Positions 38,925-58,522 of a DNA stretch of 64,000 bases are shown here, in pieces. Source of the stretch: Trueperaceae bacterium (GTDB taxonomy: Bacteria; Deinococcota; Deinococci; Deinococcales; Trueperaceae). The position numbers and the translations under genes are program-made. Under the pieces are notes generated by a model. The model made no database searches. It was not told the DNA's origin and was given only the letters and a program-made list of their open reading frames with translations. Where the stretch lies: assembly GCA_965215565.1 (NCBI GenBank), contig CBDCDZ010000004.1, forward strand, positions 768,001-832,000. The letters run 5' to 3'. Every line of letters starts with the position of its first letter. Position 1 is the stretch's first letter.

Positions 38925-41900
38925 ATGGATAAGCCCGCATCTGCACGCCCCTTAAACTTCGACGACCACGCCGTCGCCATCGCCAAACGGCAGTACTTCC
39001 AACCGGGGGACGAGGGCTTAGAGGGTCTCTTCGGGCGTGTCGCGTCGTGGGTGGCGAGCCCAGAAGGTACGAAGTTTTCTGAAGGAAAGGGTGAGAATCA
39101 AGCGCACTACGAGGGTGCATTTTACGACCTCATGGCGTCGAAGCGCTTCTGCCCCGGCGGGCGCGTCTTAGCGGGCGCGAACACGAGCCACGGCAACGTG
39201 CTCAACTGTTTCGTGCAAGACGGCAGCCCCGAAGCGCCCGGCACGGACGCCTGGGTGCTCGGTCTCGCGACGAAATTGGCGCTCGTCACCAAAGTCGGCG
39301 GCGGCAACGGGCTCTGCTTGGACCCCTTGAAGCCTAAGCGTCCTTACACCCAAGCGGTGGGCAACCTCTTCGTTACGGTGTCGTCTTCGCACCCTGACTA
39401 CGCCAAGGTCAAGTCGGGAACGTACATGGACCTCGTGCACGGCAAATATGTAACGAAGGGGTACCGGTACGCGGAGTTTCTCGAGCTAGACGACGTGGAC
39501 GCTGGGATGAATGTGCGAGAGGTGGGCGACTCCGTCGAGAGCATCTGGCAGGGCGCAGGTGAGATGATTCAGACGCTCCTCCGCGGCGAAGATGTGGTTT
39601 TGGACCTCTCCCGTTTGCGCTCGGAAGGGACGCCCGTCAAGGGCTCGGGCGGCACGAGCAGTGGACCTTCATCCTTTGCCGTCGAGGTTTTCGACAACTT
39701 CGCGTACTGGGCGTCGTTGGGCGGGGCGGAGTACGCGGGGCCGATTGCGACGCTGCGCTATATCTTCGCACCGACTTTGCGCGTCATTCGGCAAGGCGGC
39801 TGCTTGCACCCCGACACGCTCGTGCATACAAGTCGGGGCACGCTTCGCCTGAGCGAACTCGTGGATTCTTACCAGTATGGTTGGCAAGACCACGCCCTCA
39901 AAGTCGCCACCGATGAGGGTTGGAAAGACAGCCCGAGAGGGTTCAATAACGGCAACGCGGAGACGCTCAAAGTCACGCTCGGCAACGGTCAAGAGATTCA
40001 GGGTACGTCCAACCACAAGCTCAAGGTGATGTGCGAAAATGGCGAGCGGCAGTGGGTGAAGCTGGAAGATTTACGCGAGGGTGACTTCGTGATTCAGGTG
40101 CTCGACCAGCATACGGGGACGAGCGTCACGCTGTCGTCCGTGGAGGCGTCTACGCTCCATCACAACGCCAAACGCATCACCACGCCTGAAACGCTGAACG
40201 AGCGCTTGGCGTTTTTCCTCGGCTATCTCTGGGGTGACGGGTTCGTAAGCGGGAACCGCGTGGGCTTCGCTGTCTCCCACAACTCACCGATGATAGAGGA
40301 GACGCCCAAGCTCTTTGCCGAGCTGTTCGGACTAGAGGTCAGGCTCGAGCAAAAAGAGAATGACAAGAGTGCCATTTTTGTTGCGAGTAGCGCGGCGCTC
40401 GTCCAGTGGTTAGAGAGAAATGGCTTGGTGAAAGGGAGAGCGAAAGACCTGGTCCTGCCCCGCGCGATTCGCCAAGCGCCGAGACCTGTTCTAGGCGCGT
40501 TTCTGCGGGGGCTCTTCGAGGCAGATGGAACCGTAACAGTCGGTTATCCAACGCTCGCGAGCGCTTCTAAACAGCTTGTGCAAGAGGTGGCGGTGATGCT
40601 GGGTGGCCTGGGAATTCCTACCACGCTAAGAGGTGTCGCCGCTCGCACTGACCGCTACTCTAAGGGTCCTTACTACCACGTCAAAGTCGTGAGCGCGAAA
40701 GGACACAAGCGCTTTTTAGGGCGTATCGGTATGATGGCAGGCTCGCGCTTTGAAGCGCTCAAAGCTTTCCAGCCAAATACCGCTAGGGAATCATCCTGGG
40801 CGCTGCCCCATGCGAGTGCGCTGTTGCAAGGGGCGTTTGACGCTCTGCCCGCAGGCGTAAAAGGGCGTCCTTCACCCTATACGCAGGCGCGTAAAACGCT
40901 GTCACGTTATATACGCGGCGAGCGCCAACTCACCGCTACGGGATTTGAGCGGCTGGAGCAAGATACGCTCATTGCGGACAAACTTCCCGAGTTTGCCTTT
41001 GACGAGTTTTACACGCCGGTCAAATCCATCCAAATAGGTGGGCGCATCCTTACACTCGACCTTTCGGTAGACGAAAACAGGACGTACTTAGCCAATGGAA
41101 TGGTCAGCCACAACACGCGGCGTGGCGCTGGGATGGCGACGATGTCCGCCACGCATCCCGACATCCAGGACTTTGTCACCTGTAAGGATTTAGCTCGAGA
41201 AGAGGCTGAGGGCGACATCTCGACTTTTAATATCTCGGTTTTAGTCACCGATGACTTCATGAGGCGCTCGAAAGGTAGAAGTGGCGGCACTTTACACGAT
41301 GTCGCCGAGCACGCTTGGCAAACAGGTGAGCCGGGGCTTATCTTCATCGACCGCATCAACGAATTTAATCCGGTGCGGGAGAGCTTGGGGGATATTAAGG
41401 CGACCAATCCGTGCGGCGAAATCCCCCTCTTCCCCGGCGAACCCTGCGACTTGGGCGCGATCAACTTGGCTCAATACGTCGAGACACCCAGCCAGGGCAC
41501 GAACGGCTTTAACTGGACGGACTTCCGTCAAGACGTCAAAACTTGCATCCGCTTTTTGGATAACGTCTTGGAGGTCAATAAGTTCGCCCTGGAGGACAAC
41601 CGTACCATGAGCATGAAGCTGCGCCGCTTGGGACTGGGCGTGATGGGCTTGGCGGACGCGCTCATCAAGATGGGGCTCACCTACAACTCGCAGGCAGGGC
41701 GTGACGCGGTAAAAGAGGTCATCACCGAGCTGCGTGAGAACGCTACGGCTGCCAGCCAAGAACTCGCCGAAGAGCGCGGCGTTTTCCCGGGCCTCGCTTC
41801 AAGCAGCGTGGCGGAGCCGCGCCGCAACATTGCCCTGTTGACGGTTGCGCCAACCGGCACGACAAGTATGCTCATGGGCGTCTCCTCGGGCGTCGAGCCG

Positions 41901-42890
41901 ATTTTCGCGCCCTTCATCTACCGCAAAATCGGCGACTCGTACGCCGCTCTGATCTCTCCTCTCTTCAAGGAGATGCTAGAAGCGCACGAGCCGCATCCCG
42001 ATTACCGACAAGGCGACGCCTGGGATTGGGATAAAGTCGTGTCGAAGGTGCAAGAGCAGCACGGCAGCGTGCAAGGTCTGGACTTCATCCCGCAAGAGGT
42101 CAGAGACGTGCTAGTCTGCGCTCACGACATCTCACCCGAAGACCACGTCAAGATGCAGGGCACCGTGCAGAGCGCCTTTGATGCGGGCGGCGAGATGGTG
42201 GCGAACAGCATCTCGAAGACGATCAACATGCCCAACGAGGCGACCGTGAAAGAGGTCTATAACGCCTACAGCTTAGCCTTCGAGACGGGCTGTAAAGGGA
42301 TCACGGTCTATAGAGATGGCAGCAGGCAGTTCCAAGTCCTGAGTACGAAAAAAGAGGAGAAGAAAGCCAAGACTGCTTCAGCGAAACCTAAAGCTGCACC
42401 TGCAAATGCGCCTGTTACCAAGGACTCCCGCTTACCCGGCGAGCCCCTCTTCGACCGCCCCTGCCGTTTAGTCGGCTTTACCGACAACGTCAAGCTTACG
42501 ATGTCCTCGGGCGAGCGCCGGAGCTTTTACATCACCATCAACAAACAAGATGACCTGCCGACTGAGGTTTTCATTCAGTCGGGCAAAGGTGGCGAAGAGA
42601 TCATGGCGGACTCCGAGGCGCTCGGTCGACTCGCCTCGATTGCGCTTCAGTACGGCGTACCCGCCGAGGCGATCGTGAAGACGCTGCGCGGTATCAACGG
42701 CGGTATGTACGGCACCTATCAGGGGCGCATGGTGGCGTCGAAAGCGGACCTCATCGCGGTGGCGTTAGAGAGCGCTGGTGTCGCAAATGAGCTAAACAAA
42801 GGGCTCGCTTGCCCCGACTGCGGCGCTCCCCTGCGCTTCGAGGAGGGGTGCCAGAAGTGCGAAAGCTGCGGTTACAGCAAATGCTCATGA
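38925..42890 (+). CDS. nrdJ: Class II (AdoCbl-dependent) ribonucleotide reductase with intein, C-terminal TSCPD and Zn-ribbon domains
   Basis: PGGRVLAGA, LNCFV, RRGAGM, GEPG, TNPCGE, CDLGAINL, APTGT, SISKTINM, KGITVYRDGSR, CPDC...CESCGYSKC. Confidence 0.95.
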   Translation: MDKPASARPLNFDDHAVAIAKRQYFQPGDEGLEGLFGRVASWVASPEGTKFSEGKGENQAHYEGAFYDLMASKRFCPGGRVLAGANTSHGNVLNCFVQDGSPEAPGTDAWVLGLATKLALVTKVGGGNGLCLDPLKPKRPYTQAVGNLFVTVSSSHPDYAKVKSGTYMDLVHGKYVTKGYRYAEFLELDDVDAGMNVREVGDSVESIWQGAGEMIQTLLRGEDVVLDLSRLRSEGTPVKGSGGTSSGPSSFAVEVFDNFAYWASLGGAEYAGPIATLRYIFAPTLRVIRQGGCLHPDTLVHTSRGTLRLSELVDSYQYGWQDHALKVATDEGWKDSPRGFNNGNAETLKVTLGNGQEIQGTSNHKLKVMCENGERQWVKLEDLREGDFVIQVLDQHTGTSVTLSSVEASTLHHNAKRITTPETLNERLAFFLGYLWGDGFVSGNRVGFAVSHNSPMIEETPKLFAELFGLEVRLEQKENDKSAIFVASSAALVQWLERNGLVKGRAKDLVLPRAIRQAPRPVLGAFLRGLFEADGTVTVGYPTLASASKQLVQEVAVMLGGLGIPTTLRGVAARTDRYSKGPYYHVKVVSAKGHKRFLGRIGMMAGSRFEALKAFQPNTARESSWALPHASALLQGAFDALPAGVKGRPSPYTQARKTLSRYIRGERQLTATGFERLEQDTLIADKLPEFAFDEFYTPVKSIQIGGRILTLDLSVDENRTYLANGMVSHNTRRGAGMATMSATHPDIQDFVTCKDLAREEAEGDISTFNISVLVTDDFMRRSKGRSGGTLHDVAEHAWQTGEPGLIFIDRINEFNPVRESLGDIKATNPCGEIPLFPGEPCDLGAINLAQYVETPSQGTNGFNWTDFRQDVKTCIRFLDNVLEVNKFALEDNRTMSMKLRRLGLGVMGLADALIKMGLTYNSQAGRDAVKEVITELRENATAASQELAEERGVFPGLASSSVAEPRRNIALLTVAPTGTTSMLMGVSSGVEPIFAPFIYRKIGDSYAALISPLFKEMLEAHEPHPDYRQGDAWDWDKVVSKVQEQHGSVQGLDFIPQEVRDVLVCAHDISPEDHVKMQGTVQSAFDAGGEMVANSISKTINMPNEATVKEVYNAYSLAFETGCKGITVYRDGSRQFQVLSTKKEEKKAKTASAKPKAAPANAPVTKDSRLPGEPLFDRPCRLVGFTDNVKLTMSSGERRSFYITINKQDDLPTEVFIQSGKGGEEIMADSEALGRLASIALQYGVPAEAIVKTLRGINGGMYGTYQGRMVASKADLIAVALESAGVANELNKGLACPDCGAPLRFEEGCQKCESCGYSKCS
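39801..41114 (+). mobile_element. Intein (438 aa) with LAGLIDADG homing endonuclease
   Basis: RQGG|CLHPDT...GTSNHK...FLGYLWGDG...FLRGLFEADG...TLDLSV...YLANGMVSHN|TRRGA. The +1 residue is Thr. Confidence 0.95.
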
Positions 42891-42898
42891 ACTTCGGA

Positions 42899-42964
42899 TG
42901 TAGCGAGGGAATAAAGTCCGATACACGGGAATAAAGTCCGATACAAAGTAAAAAAGTCCAATAC
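42899..42964 (+). repeat. Tn7-like end with three TnsB-binding sites
   Basis: 8-bp TGTAGCGA, perfect GGGAATAAAGTCCGATACA at 42907 and 42927, degenerate AGTAAAAAAGTCCAATAC at 42947 (20-bp period). Confidence 0.9.
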
Positions 42965-43168
42965 GGACTTGAGAGAATGATGAGCGCTTTTCAGTTGGCG
43001 AACCAAGTTGTGCATAGTTCATCGTTAGAGTTAAAAGCAGTCTACCTTCTTCTCAACTGAAGGGGTAGACTGCTCGCTAGTAATCTGTAGGTCTGCCGAA
43101 AGGTATAGCCGTTCAAGGAGCTCAAGGAGATTGTTCGGAAACCTACCACTTAGGGGCAAGCGCCATTT

Positions 43169-46100
43169 ATGAATGTGGACGAAACCAGAATAGTTAATCT
43201 GAAACCAGCCATTGATCAAATTAGGCAACGGCTCCATAGCGGGCAGGCGGCAGCTATGGTCGGAGCTGGCTTCAGCCTCAACGCCACAAAGAAATCAAAG
43301 GATGCCCCGAAGTTTCCGCTATGGAGCGACTTAACGGATCAAATTTTCCATCAGGTATATCCAGATTTTCCTAAAGACAACGACCATTTGAGCCACGAAC
43401 AGATCGCGTCCAAAGCGCGAAAGACATCTGATTTCTTGAGGCTCGCCCAAGACTTTGAGAATAACGATAGAAGTAAGTTAGATGCATTTCTCGAAAAAGC
43501 TATACCTGACAGAGACTACAACCCGGGAGAGCTACATAAGCAACTCCTGAACTTGCCCTGGGCTGACATCTTCACGACAAACCAGGATACGTTGCTCGAG
43601 AGAACCACTGGCTTCATTCAGCGGTATTACAGCGAAGTTTTGTCAGAAAAAGCCTTATCTTCTGCCGCACCCCCGCGAATTGTCAAGTTGCACGGAACTC
43701 TAGGGCACAACAATTATATCTTCACGGAACGCGACTTCGACAACTATCCTACCCACCATGAAGCGTTCGTCAGCTACGTCCAGACTTCACGGGCGATCAA
43801 TACGTTTTGCCTTTTTGGTTTTTCTGGTGATGACCCTAACTTCAAGAAGTGGAACAATTGGGTCTTGAATGTTATGGCAAATCACGCACCTCAGGTGTAC
43901 CTCATCGGCCTTCTTAACCTAAGTAAACAGGATAAAAATTACTGGCGAGACAGGAAAGTCGTTCCAATAGACCTCTCAGTCCTTTTCCAGCCAGGACAAA
44001 AGCCAGACCATGCGCTTGCCCTCGAATGGTTTCTAAACGAACTCCGAGACGAAAAGGGAGGGTCAGTCGTTGAAAAAGACGGCACGGAAGAAAGCGAAGA
44101 TGATGCGCCACTTCTCTCTTGGCCTAATGTACCGGGAGCGGCCAACACTAGACTTTACATGCCTGAGCCTTACGGAAAGGACCTGACGCATGATCAGCTA
44201 AAGGAGATTGCATTGCACTGGCGTAAGCAGCGGTTGTCCTATCCCGGCTGGCTCATTACTCCGCGTGCAAATAGAGAAAATTTGTGGTCTCTAACAGAGA
44301 TGTGGGTTGATCCAGTCTTCCAAGCTGCGCAAGATATGGATGTATCCGAAGCTATCTTAGTGCTTCATGAACTGTGCTGGCGTATTCGTCAATCGCTATT
44401 CCCTTTTCTTATCGATCATGCCAAAATCATTGCTGACAGGCTCGAAACTCTTAATCCGTTTCCTGATAACCCTGAATTAAGCGGCTCTGAAGTTGTACGC
44501 GGCAACGAAGCATTTGCTGAGCTGGACTGGAAGGTGTTGGAAGAGGCTTGGCTCGAGCTTGCTTTCGTGGTGGCGCAAGAGGCTAGAGAGGACCTAGACG
44601 AGCAGAGATTCACTGTATGGATGACAAGATTGGAGAGCGTCATCCCTAAAAATGGCGACTGGTATCACCGTTGGCACCACGAACAATGCTTAATGGCGCT
44701 CTATAAGTTAAACCAGAACAGCCTCGAGCAGCATCTAGGTGAATGGATCGTTCCCGAAGCAGATTTCGTTTGGTCACTCAGGAAGTCTGCCCTCTATGCT
44801 GAGCTAGGGCAAATCAAAACGGCAACGAAGTCTTTGGAGAAGAGCCTAACGACAATTGAAGAGGCCAATGAGAAGGAAGAAGACATACACATAGGACTTC
44901 TTTCTGCGGAAAGTTGGACACTATTCGCCCTCAACGGTATAAAACGGGCTGAAAGAATTTTTCCTAATGACACAGAGTGGCAATATAAATATTCCGCTCG
45001 CCGAGAAGCACTCAAAGCGTACAGATGCGACCCCGGTGACGAGATAGATTTCCTAAGCCAAAAGGTAAGCGGCCTGCTCCCTCAGGAGAAACCAGAAGAG
45101 ACCATCAAGCATGAATTTGACCCTGGAAGGGTGACAACGACAAAGCACTTCGGACATCCATCGTCTATCGTAGATAGGCGTCACGCCTTTGCGCTGCTAA
45201 CCCTACCTGAGCACGCTGGTATTCCTGTGCGCAGCGGCAGCGTGCGGTTTTTGAAGAATGCAGAGCAAGCGGCACAGTGGATTTGGCCTTCTGCCCCTTT
45301 GTGGGCGTTAAGTGCATATATCCGTAATGGTTACGACCACAATAAGCGGGTTGATCAGTGGCTTACACGGGTTGAGGTTGCGGGTATAGCGCAAGGTGTC
45401 GCTGATGCCAGCTTCCGCATGTTCGTCCCTGCACTAAAGCAAGTGATAAGATTATTGCCTACCGAACCGCCGAGACGGAGCAGCTTTTCAGAAGAGATAG
45501 TTGTCGCCCTTGGGGAAGTGCTTTCTCGCTTAACGGTCCTCTTCTCTCCGCAGCAACTTGAAGAGCTTTTGGATGTCACTTTAGCGATGTACGAGAGCCC
45601 GGCGTTCCAAAAGGATTTTCGCCTTTACAGTGTAGTTGAGAAGTTTTTAAGGCGTGTCTTGCTAGCCCTCCCGAATACCGAACTTACCCAGCGCCTACCG
45701 GAAATTCTAAGCCTCACCTTTCCTGGAGATAAACACTCCCTAGTTGACGACATGGCGTCAGGAAACTGGCCCGAGCCCGTCAATTACATCCAATGGGATT
45801 TGCTAAATGAAGAGCTCATTGATAAGAAGGGTTCCGAGTGGGTTAGCGTGATAAGCAAGCTCACGACTGACGTTGAACATGGGTCTTCTCAAGTTAGGTC
45901 TCGAGTGGCGAGCAGGTTAGAGAAGCTTTCAAGTGCAAACCTATTGACCTCCGACCAGAAACAAGCCTTTGGCAAAGCGCTCTGGTCAAGGACATACGAG
46001 ACCCTAGACCTTCCTTCAGAAACGGAGTTCACCCCTTACGGTTTTATGGTCCTGCCAGCTCCCGAGCCCAGACGCGCAGTTGAAAGCCTGCGCTCCTACA

Positions 46101-47101
46101 TAAAGGACAACGATTTCCCTCGACTCTTCTCCTATGAGGAACCTAAAGCATCTCCCGTTAGTCATTTGACAAGGGAGGGCAAACCCGACCTCTACTACAG
46201 CCGTAACCGTAAAACAGAGAATCTCATCAATGCTTGGAAATATGCTTCAAAACGTCCCATAGATACTCTCGTGAGAAAAGATGCTTACCTTATCGAATGG
46301 TCGCCTGAGGAAGCCAGCGAACTCTTCGATAAGATTCTCACCTGGTGGCGGTGCGAAAAAGATGACGTTTTAGAAGCGAAGGTAAAAATCGCTTTTAAAG
46401 ACGAAATTCAGAATAGGATTCATGAGGTTCTTTATATCGTCGGGCATACGATTCTTCCACATTTCAAGGCGAGTGAAGAGAGCGAGAAAAGCAAGGTTTT
46501 CGACTTTTTAGAGGACCTGGAGAATTCTGATTTCGTTGTTCTCTCACCTCTGCCGATGACACTCTATCTAAACAGTTCGAAAGAGCGGCAAAGGCAATTA
46601 ACAGACAAACTCCGTAGGGGTATTCATAGCCAAGCTAAAGAAGAAGTCAGTGAAGCTCTGCAAAGTACGATGGATTGGTTAGCCTACGCCGCACTTGGTG
46701 AGCTTCCCGAAGCACCCCAGACTGTCCTCGAAGACGTCGCTCTAAAATTGGTTGCTCGGCGTGGACCTAAGCTTCGGTCTACAATTCAGATACTGACTTG
46801 GATTATCAGATTTGTCCCGCAAGTTCTAGGTGAGGTTTCGCTGAGATACATTCTCATTGCCCTTCAGTTTTTGCTCGAGGAGACGACAACCGCGCACGAG
46901 ATAAAATCAGCTCACACCCCTATTTCGGCTGAAGAGATACCTCACCTCCGAGTAGAGGCGGCTAAATTAGCGAGTGAGCTTTACCGCTATTACGGCGAGT
47001 GTGGAAGAGAAATGCCTGAGATACTGCAAGAGTGGCAGCAGATATCTTTTGAGGACCCACTTCCAGAAGTAAGAAAAGCTTTTTCTACGACTCAGAACTA
47101 G
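43169..47101 (+). CDS. Large SIR2-domain protein (DSR-like candidate anti-phage NADase)
   Basis: MVGAGFS, IFTTNQD, IVKLHG, FGFSGDDPNF in the first ~290 aa, then ~1000 aa of helical sequence with no Walker A seen. Confidence 0.8.
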   Translation: MNVDETRIVNLKPAIDQIRQRLHSGQAAAMVGAGFSLNATKKSKDAPKFPLWSDLTDQIFHQVYPDFPKDNDHLSHEQIASKARKTSDFLRLAQDFENNDRSKLDAFLEKAIPDRDYNPGELHKQLLNLPWADIFTTNQDTLLERTTGFIQRYYSEVLSEKALSSAAPPRIVKLHGTLGHNNYIFTERDFDNYPTHHEAFVSYVQTSRAINTFCLFGFSGDDPNFKKWNNWVLNVMANHAPQVYLIGLLNLSKQDKNYWRDRKVVPIDLSVLFQPGQKPDHALALEWFLNELRDEKGGSVVEKDGTEESEDDAPLLSWPNVPGAANTRLYMPEPYGKDLTHDQLKEIALHWRKQRLSYPGWLITPRANRENLWSLTEMWVDPVFQAAQDMDVSEAILVLHELCWRIRQSLFPFLIDHAKIIADRLETLNPFPDNPELSGSEVVRGNEAFAELDWKVLEEAWLELAFVVAQEAREDLDEQRFTVWMTRLESVIPKNGDWYHRWHHEQCLMALYKLNQNSLEQHLGEWIVPEADFVWSLRKSALYAELGQIKTATKSLEKSLTTIEEANEKEEDIHIGLLSAESWTLFALNGIKRAERIFPNDTEWQYKYSARREALKAYRCDPGDEIDFLSQKVSGLLPQEKPEETIKHEFDPGRVTTTKHFGHPSSIVDRRHAFALLTLPEHAGIPVRSGSVRFLKNAEQAAQWIWPSAPLWALSAYIRNGYDHNKRVDQWLTRVEVAGIAQGVADASFRMFVPALKQVIRLLPTEPPRRSSFSEEIVVALGEVLSRLTVLFSPQQLEELLDVTLAMYESPAFQKDFRLYSVVEKFLRRVLLALPNTELTQRLPEILSLTFPGDKHSLVDDMASGNWPEPVNYIQWDLLNEELIDKKGSEWVSVISKLTTDVEHGSSQVRSRVASRLEKLSSANLLTSDQKQAFGKALWSRTYETLDLPSETEFTPYGFMVLPAPEPRRAVESLRSYIKDNDFPRLFSYEEPKASPVSHLTREGKPDLYYSRNRKTENLINAWKYASKRPIDTLVRKDAYLIEWSPEEASELFDKILTWWRCEKDDVLEAKVKIAFKDEIQNRIHEVLYIVGHTILPHFKASEESEKSKVFDFLEDLENSDFVVLSPLPMTLYLNSSKERQRQLTDKLRRGIHSQAKEEVSEALQSTMDWLAYAALGELPEAPQTVLEDVALKLVARRGPKLRSTIQILTWIIRFVPQVLGEVSLRYILIALQFLLEETTTAHEIKSAHTPISAEEIPHLRVEAAKLASELYRYYGECGREMPEILQEWQQISFEDPLPEVRKAFSTTQN

Positions 47102-47107
47102 CGAGGG

Positions 47108-49651
47108 TCAAGCGAGAAGGCGGTGCACCACCGCATCGAGCAACTGCTCCGCGTCCCCCTGCGCCCGCTTTAGCCCCTCCTCCAGCGCGTCAATCAGCCC
47201 CATAAGCTCATCCACCTTAGCAACGATGCGTTTTTGTTCGTTGAGGGGCGGGAGAGGAAATACAAAGTTTTTTATGGACTTAACACCTACGTTTGCCTGA
47301 GTGGTTTTATTAGGCTCTGTTGAAATTCTTCAGTACTAGTTGTTAGAAAAGGGCATGAGCGACGTAAGAATCAAGGCTAAGCAGTGGACTAAAATCAAGG
47401 CATTCTTAGATGAGAACCCGCAGGTGTATGTAGGACAGGAGAAGCAGTGCCGTAAATTTGTTGAAGGGGTACTGTGGATGTTGCGTTCGGGTGCACAGTG
47501 GCGACTTCTCCCCCCGAGGTATGGCAATTGGAACAGTGTGTATAAGCGTTTTGACAGATGGAGTGAACGAGGCATCTGGAAGGAAATGTTTGAGCACTTT
47601 GCTGATGATCCCGATATGGAAAGTGTGATGATGGACGGCAGTGTCGTGCGAGCCCATGCGTGTTCGGCAGGTGCGCCCCATAAAAAAGGGGTCAAGAAGA
47701 ACAACACCTCGGCTATAGTCGCGGCGGGTTCAGTAGCAAGATACACGTCTTAGTCGATGCTTTAGGCAATCCGTTGCGGCTCTTACTCAGTGCCGGACAA
47801 GCGCACGAAGCGCCTTATGCCAAAGCCTTACTCGCAGACTATGAGGTTGAATTTGTGTTTGGTGACAAAGCCTATGACGCTGAAGCTATCCTCACGACTA
47901 TCGCTGAGATGGACGCCGAAGCGGTCATTCCACCCAAAAGCAACCGCAAAGAGCAGCGCGATTATGACGAAGAACTGTACAAAGAGCGTCACCTAGTTGA
48001 ATGCTTTTTCAACAAGCTCAAGCAGTATAGGCGCTGCTTCTCACGCTTCGATAAGTTCGCTCGTAACTACCTCGGCTTCTTACACTTCGCCTCGGCTCTC
48101 ATCTGGTTGCGGTGAAATGTCAACACAACCTAGTATATCTTGCGATCTCATTTTTTACAAGTCCAGACAACGAATAAAAGTAGATATATCTTGGCTCTAC
48201 GTGTCCCTTTAAGTTCTTGACAACTGCGCACGAGTAAGACGCAAGAAAGTCTATATCCGTTTCAACGAGTCCATTCTCTCCAATAGTGCCATAACGGGGG
48301 AAATGATGTCATCTCTCTTAGGCTGTATCTTACGACTCAACCGCTCAAAGTCGGTATTAGAAATTTTCTTTGCTGTTGAAAAGTTGATCTCGTTGTCCCC
48401 CGTAAAATCTCGAGGAGATACATAAGGTACGCCTTCTCTTACCTCTTCCGGCATCTTATGATCTACATCTCCTATTTGAAGCGAAACTTCATCCCATCTA
48501 CACCAGCGCCAAGTATTTGGTATTCGTATGGAAGTTTCGTCAGAACTAACTGGAGTTAAACCCTTTGTTTTTCGTATCTTTCCCTCTTCAACTAATTTTG
48601 CTTTCTCAGCTTCTATGCTCTCGAGCAACACTCCCGCCGGTTCATCCTCCGGGTCTTGGGGCACGAGCTTCCCCTGCACCGCCAGTTGCAACACCGCCTT
48701 GCGCAACGCCGCGACGCCCCCCGGCGCAGCGCACAAGAGGTCGAAGTTGTCCCGCACGCGCCGCCAGCTCCCCGCAAACGTATCCGCGTCCTCTGCGCTC
48801 AGGAGAGAGCTTAGCGCCGCGCCGCCGAACCTCATGCGGGCGTCCCTTTTGGCGCGTCCTTGCGCCTCGAGCCTGTCTATAAGCCCCATAAGCTCGTCCA
48901 CTTTGGCGACGATGCGTTTTTGTTCCTCGAGGGGTGGGAGGGGGAACAGAAGTGTATTTAGCTTGCCCTGATAAATCGCTGCAACATTAGTCGTATTTGA
49001 TTTGAGAAGGTCTAGTAGACTTTTACCCGAGGGAGACTGAAACCAGAGATTAGCAAAAGCATTATTAACACCCGGTCCGAAAATAACTTTAAGAATATTG
49101 TTGTTGAACAGCCAAATTTCTCCTGTCGGATTGAGAAATACACACGTTTTACCTACCAGCTCGAAGCTATTTCTCGTGTTGAAAAGAAAATCACCTTCAG
49201 ATAACTTGTACTTCTCAAGCTCTTCCTGGCTGGCATCGACTTTGGTAATGTCGCTAAAATCACACAACCCTGTTGTAGAAATATTGTTCATTTTGAAATA
49301 TGGGTAGTTGTTGCTTTCAGATTGTAAACGTTTTGCGCGTTCTAAGCCTGTGTGAGAATCGAGTTTTATAGATTCGAAATCTACCCAAACCCAAGATTGT
49401 GGAAGACAGAATGGACCATCAACCGACTCTGGAGTGAATAACTTTGATTTCCGAATCTGCTTATTCTGTATCTGGTTATATTTCTCTAACGTTAGTTTGC
49501 GAACTAACGCTGAGGCAGACTCATCACTCGGGTCTTGTTCGACTAACTTCCCCTGCACCGCAAGCTGCAACACCAGCTCGCGCAGCTTCTTGGCGGCGTT
49601 GGGCGCGTCGGTCAAGAGGTCGAAGTGGCGCTCTAAGGTCTCAGGCGTCAT
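47108..49651 (-). pseudogene. hsdS: Type I R-M specificity subunit, interrupted in TRD2 by a 1-bp frameshift (~48300) and an IS5
   Basis: Repeated LQLAVQGKLV.QDP.DE and PLPPL.EQKRIVAKVDELM. The second frame continues PRYGTIG...EIARY, then after the IS NKTTQANVG...VHRLLA* ending at 47108. Confidence 0.9.
47313..48130 (+). mobile_element. IS5-family (IS427-like) element, apparently intact
   Basis: TIRs GGCTCTGTTGAAATT / AATGTCAACACAACC with TA duplication (47311-12, 48131-32). Transposase 47355-48115 is in two frames joined at A6G4 (47682-47691). Motifs MDGS, GDKAYD, RHLVECFFNKLK. Confidence 0.92.
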
Positions 49652-50006
49652 CGTCAGCGCGTCCTTCTTCAGTTTGGTCTAACGCGCTTTGCAGCTCGGG
49701 CAAGAGCACAGGGATTTCGTTCTCGACCACATCCCACACGGTCTCCAAGCGGATGCCGAAGTAGTGGTGCGCCAGCACGTCACGAAACCGCGCTAGGCTG
49801 CGCCAGGGGATAGCGGGGTGCTGCTCGCGCACCTCGGCGGGGATGTTTTTGGCAGCTTCCCCCATGATTTGCAGGTTGTGAAGGGTCGCGTCTATGACCT
49901 GTTCGTCGCCTCGGAACCTCTCAAAGTCGTAGCCCTGAGTATAGCGCTGTACCTTTTGCGCTGCGCCCCGCATGTCCTCCAAAAAGAGGCGGGTGCTACG
50001 CGGCAT
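49641..50006 (-). CDS. HEPN (DUF86/HepT-like) RNase toxin
   Basis: LQIMGEAAK, IPW, RDVLAHHY (RX4HXY). Confidence 0.9.
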   Translation of the reverse strand: MPRSTRLFLEDMRGAAQKVQRYTQGYDFERFRGDEQVIDATLHNLQIMGEAAKNIPAEVREQHPAIPWRSLARFRDVLAHHYFGIRLETVWDVVENEIPVLLPELQSALDQTEEGRADDDA

Positions 50007-50307
50007 GGATGGTCAGTAAGTCCTGCTGTACCTCTTCGGTGACGTGAGGGTTCAGCGTGCCTTGCGTCGCCAAGTCCACCTTGCAGCCTAAGAGGTCTTC
50101 CAGGTAGAGCAGTGCGCCCGTGTACTGCCGAAAGGTCGGAGCGCTGCCGAAGTCCGCCAAGAGGTCTACGTCGCTCTCGGCGCTGCGCTGGTCTCTAGCG
50201 GTTGAGCCGAAGAGCGACAAGCTGCGAACGCCGTAGCGGGATTCTAGGACGTTAAGGTGTTCGCGCAGCGTTTGGATGATGTGTTCGCGCTTTAGCTCAC
50301 CTGTCAT
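49996..50307 (-). CDS. Minimal nucleotidyltransferase (MNT) antitoxin
   Basis: LFGSTARDQRSAESDVDLL (GSX10DXD), LEDLLGCKVDL. Confidence 0.9.
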   Translation of the reverse strand: MTGELKREHIIQTLREHLNVLESRYGVRSLSLFGSTARDQRSAESDVDLLADFGSAPTFRQYTGALLYLEDLLGCKVDLATQGTLNPHVTEEVQQDLLTIHAA

Positions 50308-50536
50308 AATTTGTGCGGCGCTCCATCCCCCTTAGCAGTTCCTTCTGCGCCTTCGGGTCGTGCATAGGCTCCGCGAACGCTTCCCAGAGGGCGATGGTCT
50401 CTTCGATGCGTTGCGCCTCTGTATTCTGGTCTATGTCCTGACCCGCTTCGATGTCTTCCAATGCAGCGGCGAGTCTGAAAAGGGCACTATCGTCAAGCTG
50501 GTCTATCTTTCTGCGTAACTGTTCTCTCACGGTCAT
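50297..50536 (-). CDS. Small hypothetical protein coupled to hsdM and MNT
   Basis: 79 aa, overlapping both neighbours. Antitoxin-like helical N-terminus MTVREQLRRKIDQL. Confidence 0.6.
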   Translation of the reverse strand: MTVREQLRRKIDQLDDSALFRLAAALEDIEAGQDIDQNTEAQRIEETIALWEAFAEPMHDPKAQKELLRGMERRTNYDR

Positions 50537-52002
50537 AACGCTACCTCTTCACCCTCCATCTTACCCGCTTCGGGCTCCAACGCCGCCATCAGCTCCCGTT
50601 TAAGCGCGTCCCGCGTCTCAGCGAGGTCGGCTAAGTGGGCTTGATACTCCGCTAAGAGGTCGTCGGGGTCGCCTAGAGCTTCCTCAACCGTATGCGGGTT
50701 CTTGATGTCCAGGTTGTAGCCGTTCGCCTTGATGTCCTCCACCGGAACGCGCCAGGCGTGGGCGTTCTCTTCGCGCTTATCCCACCACGCCTTCTCCGGG
50801 GCAAACTCGTCAATACGCATCGGCTTGGTCTTGGAGTACGACTTATAGCCCTTGGGGTAGGGGTGCTCGTAGTACCAGACCTCTTTCGTGGGTCTGCCTT
50901 TGGTGAAGAAGAGCAGGTTCGTCTTGATGCCCGTGTAGGGGTTGAAGACGCCATTGGGCAACCTCACGATGGTGTGCAGGTCGCACTCGTCCAAAAGCCG
51001 CTCTTTGATGCGCGTCTTGACGCCCTCACCGAAGAGTGTGCCGTCTGGCAAGACGAGCGCGGCGCGTCCGCCAGGTTTCAAGAGGTGCATGATGAGGACT
51101 AAGAAGAGGTCCGCCGTCTCGCGGGTGCGGTAGGTCGCGGGGAAGTTCTGCTCGATGCCGTCTTCCTCGGTGCCGCCGAAGGGTGGGTTGGTGAGCACCA
51201 CGTCTACGCGCTCGCTCGGGGCATAGTCGCGCAGAGGACGGGCTAAGGTATTGTCGTGACGAACTGAAGAGGGCACGTCAACGCCGTGCAAGAGCATGTT
51301 CGTCACGCAGAGCATGTGCGGAAGTTGCTTCTTCTCGACGCCGTGAATGGAGGCTTGTAGGGTCTCCCTATCTTCTGGTGTTTGGACGTAGGTGTCGCGC
51401 ACGTGCTCGAGCGCCGCCGTCAAGAAGCCGCCTGTACCGCACGCCGGGTCTAAGACCGTCTCGCCCAGCTTAGGGTCGGTCATGTCCACCATGAACTGTG
51501 TCACGGCTCGAGGTGTATAGAACTCACCCGCGTTGCCCGCGCTCTGCAAGTCTTTGAGGAGTTGTTCGTACAAATCGCCGAAGAGGTGCTGGTCTTTGGA
51601 GCTGTTAAAGTCGATCTCGTTCAGTTTATTGACCACTTGGCGAATCAGCGTACCGTTCTTCATGTAGTTGTAGGCGTCTTCGAAGACGCTACGGACGACG
51701 GTGGCTCGAGCGTCCCCGGCGGGCAAGTTCTTCAGCGCCGGGAAGAGGTCGGCGTTGACGAAGTCCAAGAGGGCGTCACCCGTGATGCCCTCGTCGTCGC
51801 TCGCCCAACTCTGCCAGCGCAGCCGCTCGGGGATGGGTGAGGTGTAGGCGTCGTCGAACATTTCGTGCTCTTGTTCGCGGTCGTCGAAAATTTTTAAGAA
51901 GAGCAGCCAGACGAGTTGGGAGATGCGCTGGGCGTCGCTATCTACCCCGGCGTCCCGGCGCATGATGTCTTGGATGCTTTTGACGGTGGTGCTGAGGGAC
52001 AT
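50533..52002 (-). CDS. hsdM: Type I R-M methyltransferase subunit
   Basis: GEFYTPR, LDPACGTGGFL, TNPPFGG, LPDGTLFG. Confidence 0.95.
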   Translation of the reverse strand: MSLSTTVKSIQDIMRRDAGVDSDAQRISQLVWLLFLKIFDDREQEHEMFDDAYTSPIPERLRWQSWASDDEGITGDALLDFVNADLFPALKNLPAGDARATVVRSVFEDAYNYMKNGTLIRQVVNKLNEIDFNSSKDQHLFGDLYEQLLKDLQSAGNAGEFYTPRAVTQFMVDMTDPKLGETVLDPACGTGGFLTAALEHVRDTYVQTPEDRETLQASIHGVEKKQLPHMLCVTNMLLHGVDVPSSVRHDNTLARPLRDYAPSERVDVVLTNPPFGGTEEDGIEQNFPATYRTRETADLFLVLIMHLLKPGGRAALVLPDGTLFGEGVKTRIKERLLDECDLHTIVRLPNGVFNPYTGIKTNLLFFTKGRPTKEVWYYEHPYPKGYKSYSKTKPMRIDEFAPEKAWWDKREENAHAWRVPVEDIKANGYNLDIKNPHTVEEALGDPDDLLAEYQAHLADLAETRDALKRELMAALEPEAGKMEGEEVAL

Positions 52003-52097
52003 GGGGTATCTTATAACGTGGGCTCGAGGTATGATCGCGACTTCTTTTTGTAGTGTGAAAGCGCTTGCTGGCTCACGTATAATTGAACCTATCTGCT

Positions 52098-55000
52098 ATG
52101 GACGGCTCTTTAGATCAACTTGTCAACTTCCCTCCCGAAGTGCGCGAAGCGCTTCAAAACGGCGCTCTCAGTTTCGCAGTCAACGTTCTCAGTAATGACT
52201 ATGTGAAGCAGCGTGCGTACATGCAGGACGAAAGGCTCAAACGCCTCAAGTTTGAAGCGGTTCCTGGAGACTACGATATTGAACGCGGCGTCCGAAAGGC
52301 TCAACTTTGGGCTACCTATAAGGTTGCTAGACATGCCGCAGAGACAGAGCCTCGTCACCAAGACTACTTCAACGGCATTGCAGACATGCTCCGAAGCGAG
52401 ATAGATAAGGTTGATAGAGACGACTATACCTTTACGAACATGCCGAGCCTCGACAAAGGAGAGATCAAGAAACTTCTACCTGGCGTCAGTATCGGTGAAG
52501 ATGAATTAGGCTGGCGACTCAAACTCACCACGTTGGCTGAACTCAAACAACGTTTTGGTTCAGAGCAAGCATTTGATACCTTGCAGCGACTTCTTCTCGG
52601 CGGATGGCAGGAGGGGGAACGTTCATTCGATTGGTTCGGTACTTTTTCAACATACTTTGCTGAGGAACGCAAAGACAATCCTGATCTAAGAGCCGCATTC
52701 GATGGATATGTATTAACCGAGATGGCGAATCAGCTCGAGCTAAACCATAGAGATGTACTCGCTCGATTAGAAGGAATCACCGACCGCTTAGCGCAAGTTA
52801 TACGGGAAGACGGTGCATCAACTCGCGCCGAGCTAAAACGCACTGCCGAGGGTGTAGGTACGCTTCTCGAGCAATCAAAGCCGAACGAGTGGTTTTTACC
52901 CCCCGGTGCATTGACGCCTGACGCCTCTCACCTCCCCCGGATTAAATCTGATTTCGTTTTTCCCCTTTCGCTAGGGGTTGAGGAAACGAATCACTCTACC
53001 CGCGATGGTGTCCAAATACTAACTGAAACTCGTACGTACGGCGAAAGCAGGGAGTTATACCGGAGGCGGCGCGTTCCCAAGCTCGCTGACACTTTTTTAG
53101 GTGAATGGGCAAGACAGCCGGGGTTATATGTAGTCACTGGAGAGCCAGGTGGTGGTAAGACCACGCTGCTAGGGTACTGGGCTAAAGAGCTGCATCAAAC
53201 TTATTTAGAAGATGACTCTCGAGCTTTCCCCCTCTATGTTTCCCTGCGGGAAATGCGTGGCACTGATAAAACTATTCTTCACGACCAGGGGGTACAACGG
53301 TACTTCAATCGTAAAGGATTGTGGGGCTACGAGATAGATGTGAGTCCTTACTGGAGCGGCGAGCGCAGAGCAATTTGGCTTCTTGACGGTTGGGATGAGC
53401 TAGAACCAACCGAGCAGGAAGATTGGCTAACTATCGCACGGTCGCTAAAAGGAACTGTGATTGTTAGCTGCCGAGCAGCCCAGTACCAAGGCAACTTAGG
53501 TCCTGACCACCTCATTATAGGGCTGAGCAAAGAGGAACAAGCGCGGTTCCTCAAAGGGCTCATACCTTCTCTTCGTATAGAAGACTCTACCGCCTACGCT
53601 AACGCTGACACAAGCTGGCGTGACGAGTTACTAGGCGAGGTTGAAAAACACCATCATCTACGCGAATTAGCTAGTAACCCCTTGCTACTTACTTTGATTG
53701 CACGGACGAATCCACCCGGCAAGGTTCAATTGCCTAGAAACCGAGAAGCATTCTACGGAGAAACGTTCGACTATATAGTGAAGCGACGCTTACCCGACCT
53801 AAATTATCGGGAGAAGCGCGACCTCAAAGCTGCACTCAAAGCAGTTGCAAGCCGGGCGCAGCTTGACCTTGTGATCAGTGAAGATGTTTTCTGGTCAGCG
53901 CTTGATGAGGTAAATGCATCTTCAAAAGTCGAGGAGCGGGCAAAAAGTTGCGGTATTCTTCAACCTAAAGGTAGCGGATACGAGTTTCTACACGCTACTT
54001 TTCAAGAATGGTTTTTAGCCCAAACCCTAGCCCAAAGTGGCGCATTAGTTGATGCTTTAGAAGCTCATTGGCGGAAGCCGAATTATGAGGAAACGTTAGC
54101 GCTCTTGTGGAGTATGGAAGCACCAGATGAGCGCTTCGCTGCCACAAAGTTTTTGCTTAACGTAGGGTGCCAATCTCAGGTCAATCAAGGTGAAGAAACA
54201 CAAGGTAAATATAAACGTAGTGGTATACGTACAGCTTTACACCTATGGCACCGAAGCGGGCTTCCCGTCGAGTCAAAGAGTCTGGAGCAGCTTTGGAACG
54301 AATTGCTAAGTAGTAATACTCCCAACAATCTTCGCGTCCTTGCAGCGGCAAGAAATGATAGGACACCCGTCGAAATACTCAAGCTAATGAAAGATAAGGT
54401 TGAGGAAGTGCGTTTGGATGTCGCTAGCAACCCAAACGCTACCGAGATGATGTTGTTAGAGCTAATGAAAGATGAGATCGCGATGGTGCGTCGGCGTGTC
54501 GCTAGCAATTCAAACGCCACTGAGCTGATGCTATTAGAGCTAATGAATGATAAGGATATGATGGTGCGTCGGCGTGTCGCCAGCAACTCAAATGCCACCG
54601 AACCTATACTGCTTGAGCTTATGAAAGATGAAAATGGAGGGGTGCGCCAGTATGTTGCCAGTAACCCAAACGCTACCGAGGCGGTGCTGTTAGAGTTGAC
54701 GAAAGATAAGGATAAACACGTACGTCAGAATACAGCCAGCAATCCAAACGCTACCGAGGTGGTGCTGTTAGAGCTGATGAATGATGAGGATGTGATGGTG
54801 CGTTGGCATGTTGATCGCAATCCAAACGCCACCGAATCTATGCTGCGTGAGCTTGTGGAAGACGGAGGAGTGCATTGGAGTATAGCCCGCAATCCAAACG
54901 CCGCCGAAGCAGTTCTGCTTGAGCTAATGAATGATGAGGATAAGCATATACATCGGAATGTCGCCCGCAACTCAACTACCACCGAGGCAGTGCTGTTAAA

Positions 55001-55310
55001 GCTGATAAAAGATAAGGACAAATATGTACGTCGGGGTGTCGCCCGCAACCCAAATGCTACCGAGACAGTTCTACTTGAGCTAATGAATGATGAGGATGAA
55101 TATGTGCGTCAGAACGTCGCCAGCAACTCGAACGCCACCGAGGTGGTGCTATTAGAGTTGACGAAAGATAAGGATACGATGGTGCGTCGGAATGTCGTCA
55201 GCAACCCAACCACTACCGAGGCAGTGCTGATCAAACTAACAAGAGATGAGAATAAGCATGTGCGAGAAGCTGTGGCTACTAATCTAAACACCTGCCTCGA
55301 GTGGCTCTAA
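52098..55310 (+). CDS. NACHT/STAND NTPase with C-terminal LRV/HEAT-like repeats (bacterial NLR-like)
   Basis: Walker A GEPGGGKTT, Walker B WLLDGWDE, VSCR, NPLLLTL, YEFLHATFQEWF. Repeats from 54408. Confidence 0.88.
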   Translation: MDGSLDQLVNFPPEVREALQNGALSFAVNVLSNDYVKQRAYMQDERLKRLKFEAVPGDYDIERGVRKAQLWATYKVARHAAETEPRHQDYFNGIADMLRSEIDKVDRDDYTFTNMPSLDKGEIKKLLPGVSIGEDELGWRLKLTTLAELKQRFGSEQAFDTLQRLLLGGWQEGERSFDWFGTFSTYFAEERKDNPDLRAAFDGYVLTEMANQLELNHRDVLARLEGITDRLAQVIREDGASTRAELKRTAEGVGTLLEQSKPNEWFLPPGALTPDASHLPRIKSDFVFPLSLGVEETNHSTRDGVQILTETRTYGESRELYRRRRVPKLADTFLGEWARQPGLYVVTGEPGGGKTTLLGYWAKELHQTYLEDDSRAFPLYVSLREMRGTDKTILHDQGVQRYFNRKGLWGYEIDVSPYWSGERRAIWLLDGWDELEPTEQEDWLTIARSLKGTVIVSCRAAQYQGNLGPDHLIIGLSKEEQARFLKGLIPSLRIEDSTAYANADTSWRDELLGEVEKHHHLRELASNPLLLTLIARTNPPGKVQLPRNREAFYGETFDYIVKRRLPDLNYREKRDLKAALKAVASRAQLDLVISEDVFWSALDEVNASSKVEERAKSCGILQPKGSGYEFLHATFQEWFLAQTLAQSGALVDALEAHWRKPNYEETLALLWSMEAPDERFAATKFLLNVGCQSQVNQGEETQGKYKRSGIRTALHLWHRSGLPVESKSLEQLWNELLSSNTPNNLRVLAAARNDRTPVEILKLMKDKVEEVRLDVASNPNATEMMLLELMKDEIAMVRRRVASNSNATELMLLELMNDKDMMVRRRVASNSNATEPILLELMKDENGGVRQYVASNPNATEAVLLELTKDKDKHVRQNTASNPNATEVVLLELMNDEDVMVRWHVDRNPNATESMLRELVEDGGVHWSIARNPNAAEAVLLELMNDEDKHIHRNVARNSTTTEAVLLKLIKDKDKYVRRGVARNPNATETVLLELMNDEDEYVRQNVASNSNATEVVLLELTKDKDTMVRRNVVSNPTTTEAVLIKLTRDENKHVREAVATNLNTCLEWL
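54408..55307 (+). repeat. In-frame 78-bp (26-aa) tandem repeat array
   Basis: Eleven units of VRxxVA(S/R)NPNATExxLLELxxD(E/K)Dxx (one is 24 aa) plus a partial twelfth. Confidence 0.92.
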
Positions 55311-55342
55311 CCCCATCTAATTTACCAGCGCACTTAACATCT

Positions 55343-57691
55343 CTAAGCCGCGTAAAGCTCCATCTCCAATCCCTGCAACGCCGCCAAATACTGCTGCTTC
55401 CCCCCAAAGTGCTTGATAAGCTCAACAGGCGACCCCAACGCACTAATCGGCTGCACCTTGAGCACACTGAAGTCTTCAATGCTCTCAATCCCAGCGTCCG
55501 CATACTTCTCCAAAAGCGCGTCCAACACCTTCCGCGCCTCTTCGCTGTACGACGAGAAGTACCCCCGTTTGCGGACACTCTCCGCCCGCTCACGCCGCGT
55601 CAAGGGCGGCTGGTCGTAGACGATATGGCAGATGAGGTCGAAGGGGTCGTAGTCCTTGCCGACCTTCTTCTGAAGCTCTTCGAATAGGATGCCCTGCTCT
55701 TCTAGCTCAGCGATGATGGCGTGTTTCTGCTCGGTGCGCGTCCAGGACTGTAAGAAGGACTCCAAGGTGCTGTACTCGCGCCTCACCGCCTTGCGGGTGT
55801 AGTCGGTGAGCGACTCGGTGATGAGCTTGCCGCCCGGTCCGTAATACTGCACGCGCTCGGCGATGACGGACACGTCGATGTCACGCACCGTGTACTTCCT
55901 GCGCCGTTCACCCTCGCCGATGGAGAAGGCGATGTCGGGCTCGAGTTCCTGCGCTTCCTCGCCCTGGTCTTCATCCTCGGGCGGTACAGGCGACTCGTCC
56001 GTCTCAGGCTCGTAAATCTGCACGGGCTCCCCGTCGAAGTCGGGGTCGGCGAAGAGTTCGGTCGCCTTCTTGAAGTCCATGATGGTGAAGAACTGTTTGC
56101 CGTAGTCCTCGGCGACCCGCGTGCCTCGTCCGATAATCTGCTTGAACTCGGTCATGGAGTTGATGCGCCTGTCTAAGACGATGAGCTTGCAGGTCTGCGC
56201 GTCTACTCCGGTAGTCATGAGCTTGGAGGTCGTGACGATGACCGGGTAGGGCTCCCAGGGCAAGATGAAGTTGTCCAGCTCGGCTTTCCCCTCGGCGTCG
56301 TCCCCGGTGATGCGCATGACGTACTTGTAGTTCTCGGCGACCTTATCCATGTTCTCGTTGATAAGCGCTTGACGCATCCTGCGGGCGTGGTCGATGTCCT
56401 CGCAGAAGACGATGGTCTTACCCATGCGGTCGGTTTGTCTGAGGTAGTCCGAGACCTTCTTGGCGACGAGGCGGGTGCGGGGCTCTAAAACGAGGTTTCG
56501 GTCGTAGTCCATCTGGTTGTAGATGCGGTCCTCTATTTCCACGCCGTAGGAGTCGCGCTGCCCCGCCTCGGGTCGCCAGCCCGTAAGGTCCTTGTCGATG
56601 TCGATACGCACGACCTTGTAGGGCGCTAAGAAGCCGTCGTTGATGCCCTCTTTGAGCGAGTAGGTGTAGACGGGCTCGCCGAAGTAGTGGATGTTCGATA
56701 CGTCTGCCGTCTCTTTGGGTGTCGCCGTCAAGCCTATCTGCGTCGCCCCGGAGAAATACGCCAAGATTCTGCGCCAGTTCGAGTTCTCCTTAGCACTCCC
56801 TCGGTGGCACTCGTCAATCACGATGAGGTCGAAGAAGTCGGGGGAGAACTGCGTGTAGATGTCGGCGTCGATCTCGTTGCCCGTCACCGCTTGGTAGAGC
56901 GAGAGGTAAATCTCGTAGCTCTTGTCCACCGTGCGGTTGCTGATCTTCGTCATCGCCCCGCCGAAGGGCTTGAAGTCGTTCGTCTTGGCTTGGTCTACCA
57001 AGATGTTGCGGTCGGCGAGGAAGAGGATGCGCTTCTTCGTGCCTGACTTCCACAAGCGCCAGATGATTTGGAAGGCGGTGTAGGTCTTGCCCGTCCCTGT
57101 TGCCATGACGAGGAGGATGCGGTCTTGCCCTTTGGCGATGGCTTCGACGGTGCGGTTGATGGCTTTGACCTGGTAGTAGCGCGGCGCACGCCCCGAGCCG
57201 TCGTCGTAGTAGGGCTGCACGGCGACGCGCTCGACCTCAGTGTCCTCCAAGCCCTTCCAGGCTTTGTAGCGCCGCCAGAGTTCGTCGGGGGAGGGGAACT
57301 GCTCCAAGGTCAGCTCTTGCTCTGGTATAGCAGCATTACCCATGCGGTCATGGAAGATGAACCCATCGCCGTTGGAAGTGAAGATGAAGAGTACGCCCAG
57401 CATCTCGCCGTATCTGAGGGCTTGCTGCATCCCGTCGCCTACACCGTGCGTGTTGTCCTTCGCTTCCACGATGGCGAGCGGGATGTTGGGGCTGTGGTAG
57501 AGGATGTAGTCGGCGCGTTTGGTCTCACCGCGCTTGGCGGTCTGTCCCCGCACGATGATGCGCCCTTTGGTAAACGTGACCTCTTCGCGTATTTGCGTCT
57601 GCACGTCCCAACCCGCCTGCTTGATAGCGGGGGTGATGTACTTGGTGCAGATGTCGCGTTCGGATAGGGCTTGTTTGTTGATGTGCGTCAC
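55343..57691 (-). CDS. hsdR: Type I R-M restriction subunit (EcoAI/EcoEI-like)
   Basis: ADY...IVEAK nuclease motif, [29 protein letters not shown], EcoEI-type C-terminus. Confidence 0.95.
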
Positions 57692-57923
57692 GTGAGGGTC
57701 TATCCTACCGTGTTGGACGTTAAAGGGTTAGAGATTAGGTCACGGCTGTGTGCCTTACAGCAGGAGAACGCTTGCTTTACTGTCGAGCACGGTTCGCTTC
57801 GGCATAAGAAAAGAGTTGCGAAGCGTTCCACCTACGTGTTTGCACAAGACTTGACAGCAGTGTCTAAAACCACAGCAGACGTCTCATCGCAAATCCTTCT
57901 CCCTCTCATCAAACATAAGATGG

Positions 57924-57941
57924 TGTGTACTAACGTACACA
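57924..57941. promoter_or_regulatory. Palindromic operator upstream of the Xre pair
   Basis: TGTGTAC-TAAC-GTACACA immediately before the AAGGAGGT RBS. Confidence 0.6.
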
Positions 57942-57956
57942 TAAGGAGGTAGGGGA

Positions 57957-58205
57957 ATGGCTCATAGTTTGGAACTCGACGAAATGCTCGTCACGGTTGC
58001 CTGCCGCGTTAAGACCATGCGCACACAGGGTGGCATGATGCCTGAAGACCTAGCCGATAAAGCGCAGATCGACTTACCTGTCGTACACGAGATTGAGGCG
58101 GCGCGGCGCAACATGACCTTAACGGAACTCTACCGGCTCGCCAGGGCTTTCGACGTCTGGCCCAGCGACCTCGTTGCAGACTTTCCGGGGGATGCGTCAC
58201 AATGA
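57957..58205 (+). CDS. Xre-family HTH protein (divergent recognition helix)
   Basis: RVKTMR...EDLADKAQID...HEIEAARRNMTLTELYRLARAFDV. Confidence 0.8.
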   Translation: MAHSLELDEMLVTVACRVKTMRTQGGMMPEDLADKAQIDLPVVHEIEAARRNMTLTELYRLARAFDVWPSDLVADFPGDASQ

Positions 58206-58209
58206 CGTC

Positions 58210-58461: not shown

Positions 58462-58522
58462 AGGAGGGAGGGACGAGTCTCGAGCGCTGCTATTTCGACA
58501 AGGTATCGTAAGGGAGAGAGCT

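Follow-up and report, generated by a model that had tools for sequence, protein, structure and literature searches.

A Tn7-like transposon behind the class II ribonucleotide reductase gene nrdJ of a Trueperaceae genome, with nrdJ as a likely attachment site

The window analysed in this study is a stretch of 64,000 nucleotides of a Trueperaceae genome (G000:C4:768001-832000); features localized past its end are given in window-equivalent positions, obtained by subtracting 768000 from the C4 coordinate. The gene nrdJ, which encodes a class II (B12) ribonucleotide reductase with an intein, occupies positions 38925..42890 of the forward strand, and its product matches the NCBIfam model TIGR02504 (NrdJ_Z) with 508 bits for a cut-off of 400. 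The reading frame terminates in EEGCQKCESCGYSKCS-TGA and the sequence TGTAGCGA begins at 42899, 8 bp past the stop codon. An earlier sequence-only reading had placed the nrdJ stop at 42890 and a transposon terminus at 42899, and both coordinates were recovered. The intein, which carries a LAGLIDADG domain, covers about 39800-41115 of the window (nrdJ residues about 293-730). The open frames of the nrdJ genes of the family range from about 880 to more than 1700 aa, a spread that suggests a patchy distribution of inteins.

The Tn7-like element has a length of 25,753 bp, from 42899 to window-equivalent 68651; the part 42899..64000 lies within the window and the remainder beyond it. Its two ends are inverted and identical at 24 of 26 positions, which is the top score among all TGT/ACA pairs of a 45-kb region, and the inverted far end (...ACA) that the sequence-only reading had looked for is present at C4:836651. 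The nrdJ-proximal end (42899..42970, forward strand) is of the Tn7 right-end type, with a TGT terminus and three TnsB sites. The first bases of these AATAAAGTCCGATAC-type sites are at end positions 12, 32 and 52, with 0, 0 and 2 mismatches respectively, and the sites so display the 20-bp period reported earlier. Since only 39 sites of this type (up to three mismatches) occur in the 4.49-Mb genome, the array is beyond chance. At the distal end (about window-equivalent 68513-68651) the three TnsB sites are spaced apart, at end positions 12, 70 and 125. The element thus has 8-bp TGT/ACA termini and several TnsB sites in an asymmetric arrangement, and both ends look intact.

A strong hairpin is found within the proximal end, at 43037..43073 of the forward strand (z -3.9). 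It receives no terminator score and may act as a replacement for the displaced hairpin of nrdJ. A second one (window-equivalent 68727-68759; z -4.55) is localized 75 bp past the element and is probably the original nrdJ hairpin; the congener G002 has a hairpin close behind its nrdJ stop. Past the distal end and before carA (L001:10067-12800), we observe an ORF cut by an IS, without Pfam or NCBIfam match and with what we take to be a recombinase-like motif, together with an Mrr-type nuclease fused to an IrrE-like domain. By its gene content, this region may represent more mobile debris behind nrdJ.

The assignment to the Tn7-like transposons made in the sequence-only reading is borne out by the genes of the element, which include tnsA, tnsB, tnsC and a long TniQ-TnsD gene in the order tnsA-tnsB-tnsC-tnsD, reading towards the distal end. 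The last two had been expected past position 64000 and were indeed found there. Pfam matches cover TnsA, AAA/TniB, TniQ and TnsD; the element encodes TnsA, TnsB (DDE), TnsC (AAA+) and a selector with a TniQ domain, tnsC and tnsD being broken in this copy. The gene tnsA (60912..61790, forward strand) matches PF08722 and PF08721. The gene tnsB (forward strand) covers 61744..64000 and runs on to window-equivalent 64116; its product has invariant DDE residues and matches Tn7 TnsB (7PIK) with an E value of 1e-89. The gene tnsC (window-equivalent 64113-66561) is split by an IS (about 65338-66159), and tnsD (window-equivalent 66561-68477) contains an in-frame TGA at codon 452. The TnsD homologue P0003 matches Tn7 TnsD (8GLU). 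Because of the IS in tnsC and the stop in tnsD, the present copy is non-autonomous and no longer able to move by itself. Cas and TnpB selectors had also been suggested as things to look for past 64000; neither these nor TnsE was detected among the main ORFs of the element that were scanned. Any special status for the zinc-binding insert of TnsD was dropped, a second zinc finger being described for AvTnsD in the accessible part of PMC13251919.

From the nrdJ side, the cargo consists of a Dsr2-like sirtuin, an IS and a type I restriction-modification cluster, followed by the tns genes. The sirtuin (43169..47101, forward strand, 1310 aa) scores 715 bits with the PADLOC Dsr2 model and 708 bits with NCBIfam Dsr2, the latter below the cut-off of 1400. 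The IS, of IS4/IS5 type (47311..48132, forward strand), is 85% identical to the copy inserted in tnsC. The genes hsdR, hsdM and hsdS occupy 48251..57691 on the reverse strand; the cluster includes a HepT/MntA-like pair, both members of which are below cut-off. Beside the IS, hsdS (48251-49651) seems to have a frameshift or a truncation close to its 3' end. Between hsdM and hsdR, on the opposite strand, a 1075-aa protein with NACHT and HEAT/LRV-repeat domains is encoded at 52083-55310; it has no PADLOC match and its gene is a candidate for an undescribed defence gene.

The occurrence of similar ends behind nrdJ was surveyed in related genomes. The terminal nrdJ motif is present in 26 of the 30 nrdJ loci fetched (one of these 26 rows, G035, is marked unpublished and no claim leans on it alone). 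Among these 26 loci, a full end was detected only in G000 and a remnant in the congener G001, and the same result was obtained, among the matches listed, for 128 genomes of the family, 102 of which match the nrdJ-end pattern. The G001 remnant retains 13 of 14 end bases, 5 bp past the nrdJ stop (about 2e-6 per stop), and continues like a variant end from the metagenome records X2 described below, with five bases missing. The search for empty sites in relatives, suggested by the earlier reading, was successful: the nrdJ site of the congener G002 is empty, with the hairpin and no end. The genes following nrdJ differ between congeners, and for this reason the empty allele of G000 itself was not recovered. 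Downstream of the empty site in G002 (L038:1000-9600), we observe a cluster of IS elements, accompanied by two presumed features, a pair resembling a toxin-antitoxin system and a cyclase-like gene together with a small membrane protein.

At the scale of the phylum, the 14-bp end pattern was found in 6 of 364 genomes, with 8 matches (4 for the reversed control). Five matches, in G018, G284, G027 and G305, are localized away from nrdJ and without repeated sites, and were set aside as chance. The trinucleotide TGT occurs 2-14 bp from the nrdJ-end pattern in 13 of the 128 family genomes; four of these were judged non-nrdJ from the peptide, and among the others TnsB sites are present only in G000. 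A terminus-like word in G014 was discarded, being part of a palindrome. In G293 (L126:1771-1830), an 8-bp terminus-like word stands 8 bp past the nrdJ stop without TnsB sites; it is possibly the trace of a lost element, unsupported by other features.

Metagenome sequences were also searched for junctions between nrdJ and the end (likeness 80); the junctions given here are those among the matches listed, and their number is therefore at least this. In X1 (study P1), the diverged records 5 and 7 (about 85-88% alike) span the junction from nrdJ to the end, each flank being longer than 70 letters; a loose end belongs to a different nrdJ allele, whose stop is followed by the end after 7 bp. In X2 (study P2), a third nrdJ allele has the end 8 bp past the stop, and another record displays a variant end whose own sites have a period of 20 bp; on the element side, the alignment of the X2 records extends over 0 and 20 bases, and what follows is read from 30-letter loose ends, which fall short of the 31-letter bridging rule. 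The X2 allele shares with G002 the same last codons and 6 of the 8 spacer bases. The runs X3 and X4 probably correspond to the source sample and were left out of the count, and the run X5 gave nothing useful for junctions. The spacers from nrdJ stop to end are therefore of 8, 8 and 7 bp, with 5 bp for the remnant, and would correspond to independent events. The related ends in X1 and X2 have the same orientation as in G000: the tightly spaced end faces nrdJ in all of them.

On the basis of the limits and genes of the element, its end anatomy and orientation, its repeated juxtaposition with nrdJ and the one empty site of a congener, all of which are observed, we consider with a probability of roughly 85% that nrdJ is the attachment site of TnsD and that the element homes to the 3' end of this gene. 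Homing to the nrdJ end had been put forward in the sequence-only reading, and it is favored by the related ends that diverged contigs from two further studies carry 7-8 bp past the stop of nrdJ. Several facts limit this confidence. The TnsD clade described below is tied to the nrdJ junctions of X1 and X2 by end sequence alone, since the collection scans and genome samples yielded no further complete element of the clade in which the tns genes share a contig with nrdJ. Occupancy is also low (one full end and one remnant in 128 family genomes) and the spacer varies (8, 8, 7 and 5 bp). Finally, all junctions apparently stem from closely related members of a single genus. Repeated insertion seems the best explanation for a terminus that is conserved while the spacers and end types differ. 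The close relationship of the hosts nevertheless leaves a small share of probability to a single old insertion behind nrdJ in a common ancestor of the genus, whether fortuitous or due to a different pathway, which would have been inherited without any nrdJ-specific selector. This improbable history agrees with junctions confined to G000, G001 and metagenome contigs 85-88% alike, and with their absence from the other genera of the family, but it accounts poorly for spacers and last codons that differ fully among alleles while the termini are near-identical, for the different end types, and for G002 being cleanly empty where its X2 look-alike is filled. It also leaves aside the full-length TnsD of the element, a protein that normally defines a fixed site.

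If the element homes to nrdJ in the manner of Tn7 and AvCAST, its TnsD would read, roughly, the EEGCxKC codons that lie 27-47 bp ahead of the last base of the stop codon, and would load TnsC; TnsAB would then insert the element between the nrdJ stop and the nrdJ hairpin, which spares the enzyme and brings in the anti-phage cargo. For AvCAST, the accessible part of PMC13251919 reports base contacts at positions -31 to -11 of glmS and ends joined 24 bp downstream. Shifting this geometry by 16 bp, the predicted base-contact window of TnsD would be 42844..42864 (forward strand; codons for EGCQKCE), in which the 26 loci share 9 invariant positions out of 21, partly by construction as the rows were chosen by that motif. 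By this geometry, TnsD may bind the codons of the zinc ribbon.

Close homologues of this TnsD fall at 63-65% and 35-42%. They form a clade of 11 sequences with an SH-aLRT value of 99, in a quick tree of 45 rows (13 of its 41 inner branches being open), apart from the glmS-adjacent TnsDs of G108, G167, G282, G394 and G469. The metagenome contig L081 encodes a TnsD of the clade (39%) and a TnsC (64.5%), and the same terminus and sites are found at its end; with 3.8 kb, it is the only contig of the clade with enough DNA and it ends before any attachment gene. Scans of the collections with the TnsD alignment recovered 13 loci in genomes and 23 in metagenomes; apart from L081 and L082 all are distant, and nrdJ is absent from the DNA fetched at each of them. 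The best TnsC of the plasmid scan is at 46-48%, and the viral scans yielded nothing relevant. Among 301, 221 and 216 genomes (two other phyla) and the 128 family genomes, a TnsD of the clade or a TnsB with the insertion described below was found only in G000. In the phylum, PF15978 is matched in 10 of 364 genomes, 8 of them above cut-off. None of the 7 other genomes above this cut-off has an element near nrdJ, and the elements of G282, G108 and G167 adjoin glmS. The TnsD elements of these other phylum genomes belong to other clades and speak neither for nor against homing to nrdJ.

The flanks of the element differ from what the sequence-only reading had predicted, namely a 5-bp duplication TCGGA (42894-42898) and, at the far end, ACA followed by TCGGA. 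The far flank reads ACA/CTTCGGA, and the same 7 bases precede the proximal end: the direct repeat is CTTCGGA, with its left copy at 42892..42898 (forward strand) and its right copy at window-equivalent 68652-68658, past the window. Among repeat lengths of 3-11 only 7 fits, with a chance of 6e-5. The single downstream match to ACA plus TCGGA lies inside a cargo gene and was rejected as far end. This copy thus departs from a 5-bp target-site duplication. The same kind of search in control elements (n=5) gave repeats of 5, 5, 5, 5 and 4 bp; both ends were found in 4 of 23 regions with other elements (5, 5, 5 and 4 bp), to which one further element (5 bp) was added. In the region that provides the 4-bp control (G282:C2:1233000-1277100, L127-L129), two Tn7-like elements stand in tandem at glmS; the proximal one, of 37 kb, is flanked by a repeat of 4 bp and not of 5 bp. 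No 7-bp duplication in Tn7-like elements was found in the literature searched, subscription papers being outside its scope.

A clade-specific insertion of about 12 aa was detected in the C-terminal barrel (Mu-transposase C-terminal) of TnsB. In the alignment of 119 sequences (from the best 120 of 906 matches, the partial P0159 being omitted), the segment has exactly 11 residues in 110 sequences and 20-31 residues in the 9 closest ones, of which P0045 is itself short; it has 11 residues in 9 of 9 control TnsBs, and Tn7 TnsB is without the insertion. By sequence alignment, the insertion falls within PF09299 at about residues 432-445 of ShCAST TnsB, and would thus be placed in a target-contacting barrel; according to the part of PMC9371665 consulted, it is domain II-beta that stabilises the bent target.

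Three readings of the 7-bp repeat can be weighed. The TnsB of this clade may stagger its strand-transfer attacks by 7 bp, possibly through the insertion in the barrel, a tentative reading that we hold to be rather unlikely; the repeat is perfect and bounded by canonical TGT/ACA termini, and the length of the segment, its position in PF09299 and the role of domain II-beta point the same way. The stagger is fixed mainly by active-site geometry. A surface insertion need not alter it, and a single element is concerned. Possible, though short of even odds, is that two ordinary 5-bp insertions, separated by 2 bp, were joined into a hybrid repeat by recombination of chromosome copies or strains, in which case the left and right junctions would stem from different events. 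The left flank (...TCGGA) and the right flank (CTTCG...) are the exact remains expected of two such events, the junction position shifts by 1-3 bp among alleles, and the group presumed to include the host is polyploid and recombinogenic; this explanation nevertheless demands two events on the same allele. Just as possible is a one-off aberrant strand transfer, or a slippage of 2 bp after insertion. One of the five control elements, that of G282, also deviates from 5 bp, but here the two extra bases must match the adjoining target bases (1 in 16 if random). The complete proposal, of a distinct clade combining a TnsD that reads nrdJ (7-8 bp past the stop) with a barrel-insertion TnsB that makes a 7-bp staggered join, is accordingly held as doubtful and on the unlikely side, separately from homing to nrdJ as such.

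If homing to nrdJ is true, the selectors of Tn7-like elements use genes of all three classes of ribonucleotide reductases (nrdB, nrdD and nrdJ), and the nrdJ end would be a safe integration site in hosts dependent on the class II enzyme. If a 7-bp duplication were a trait of the clade, it would break the 5-bp hallmark used for boundary calls, and such elements would be missed or mis-delimited. A 7-bp stagger would likewise make the clade an exception to the 5-bp rule that is given for every relative of Tn7, one with a candidate structural cause, and would offer a natural handle on how TnsB sets the stagger, of relevance to transposon-based insertion tools.

Ribonucleotide reductase genes have already been described as attachment sites. 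In the part of PMC11014353 available to us, nrdB is the attachment site of Tn7-like elements of Acinetobacter and Guyparkeria; these elements also insert downstream of a ribonucleotide reductase gene, that of the class I beta subunit, whereas the enzyme is of class II here. The main text of bioRxiv 10.1101/2025.07.27.667033, as far as accessible, describes nrdD, the gene of a class III enzyme, as attachment site in archaea, Agathobacter and Fusibacillus, with several independent origins proposed, and contains no occurrence of nrdJ. The consulted parts of PMC10293859 and PMC8649781 make no mention of a ribonucleotide reductase, and nrdJ, attachment site and transposon were not found together in the literature searched (excluding subscription papers). 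The candidate attachment site of the sequence-only reading would therefore be new, within the literature searched, for nrdJ at most and not for ribonucleotide reductase genes in general.

With Tn7 at attTn7 and AvCAST, the element shares tnsA, tnsB, tnsC and a long TnsD, the TGT/ACA termini, a position past the stop codon of an essential gene, and closely spaced sites on the end facing the attachment gene (accessible part of PMC11406308). It differs from both by its attachment gene (nrdJ instead of glmS), its tns genes localized at the end distal to this gene, its 7-bp flanking repeat, and the lack of TnsE or Cas, no second pathway (TnsE or CRISPR effector) being encoded among its main ORFs. 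The distance from the stop is 7-8 bp, whereas it is about 25 bp for Tn7 (at glmS, 25 bp in G000 and 26 bp in G394). The glmS locus of the present genome holds a different, decayed Tn7-like element (G000:C4, about 1895780-1901200), which begins 25 bp past the glmS stop and has frameshifted tns genes. The element behind nrdJ is not a prototypic Tn7 (glmS, TnsE), given its place and its separate TnsD clade; it probably works like a TnsD-homing Tn7 element and has homologous machinery, and the separate TnsD clade, the short spacing and the TnsB barrel insertion appear to be particular to it.
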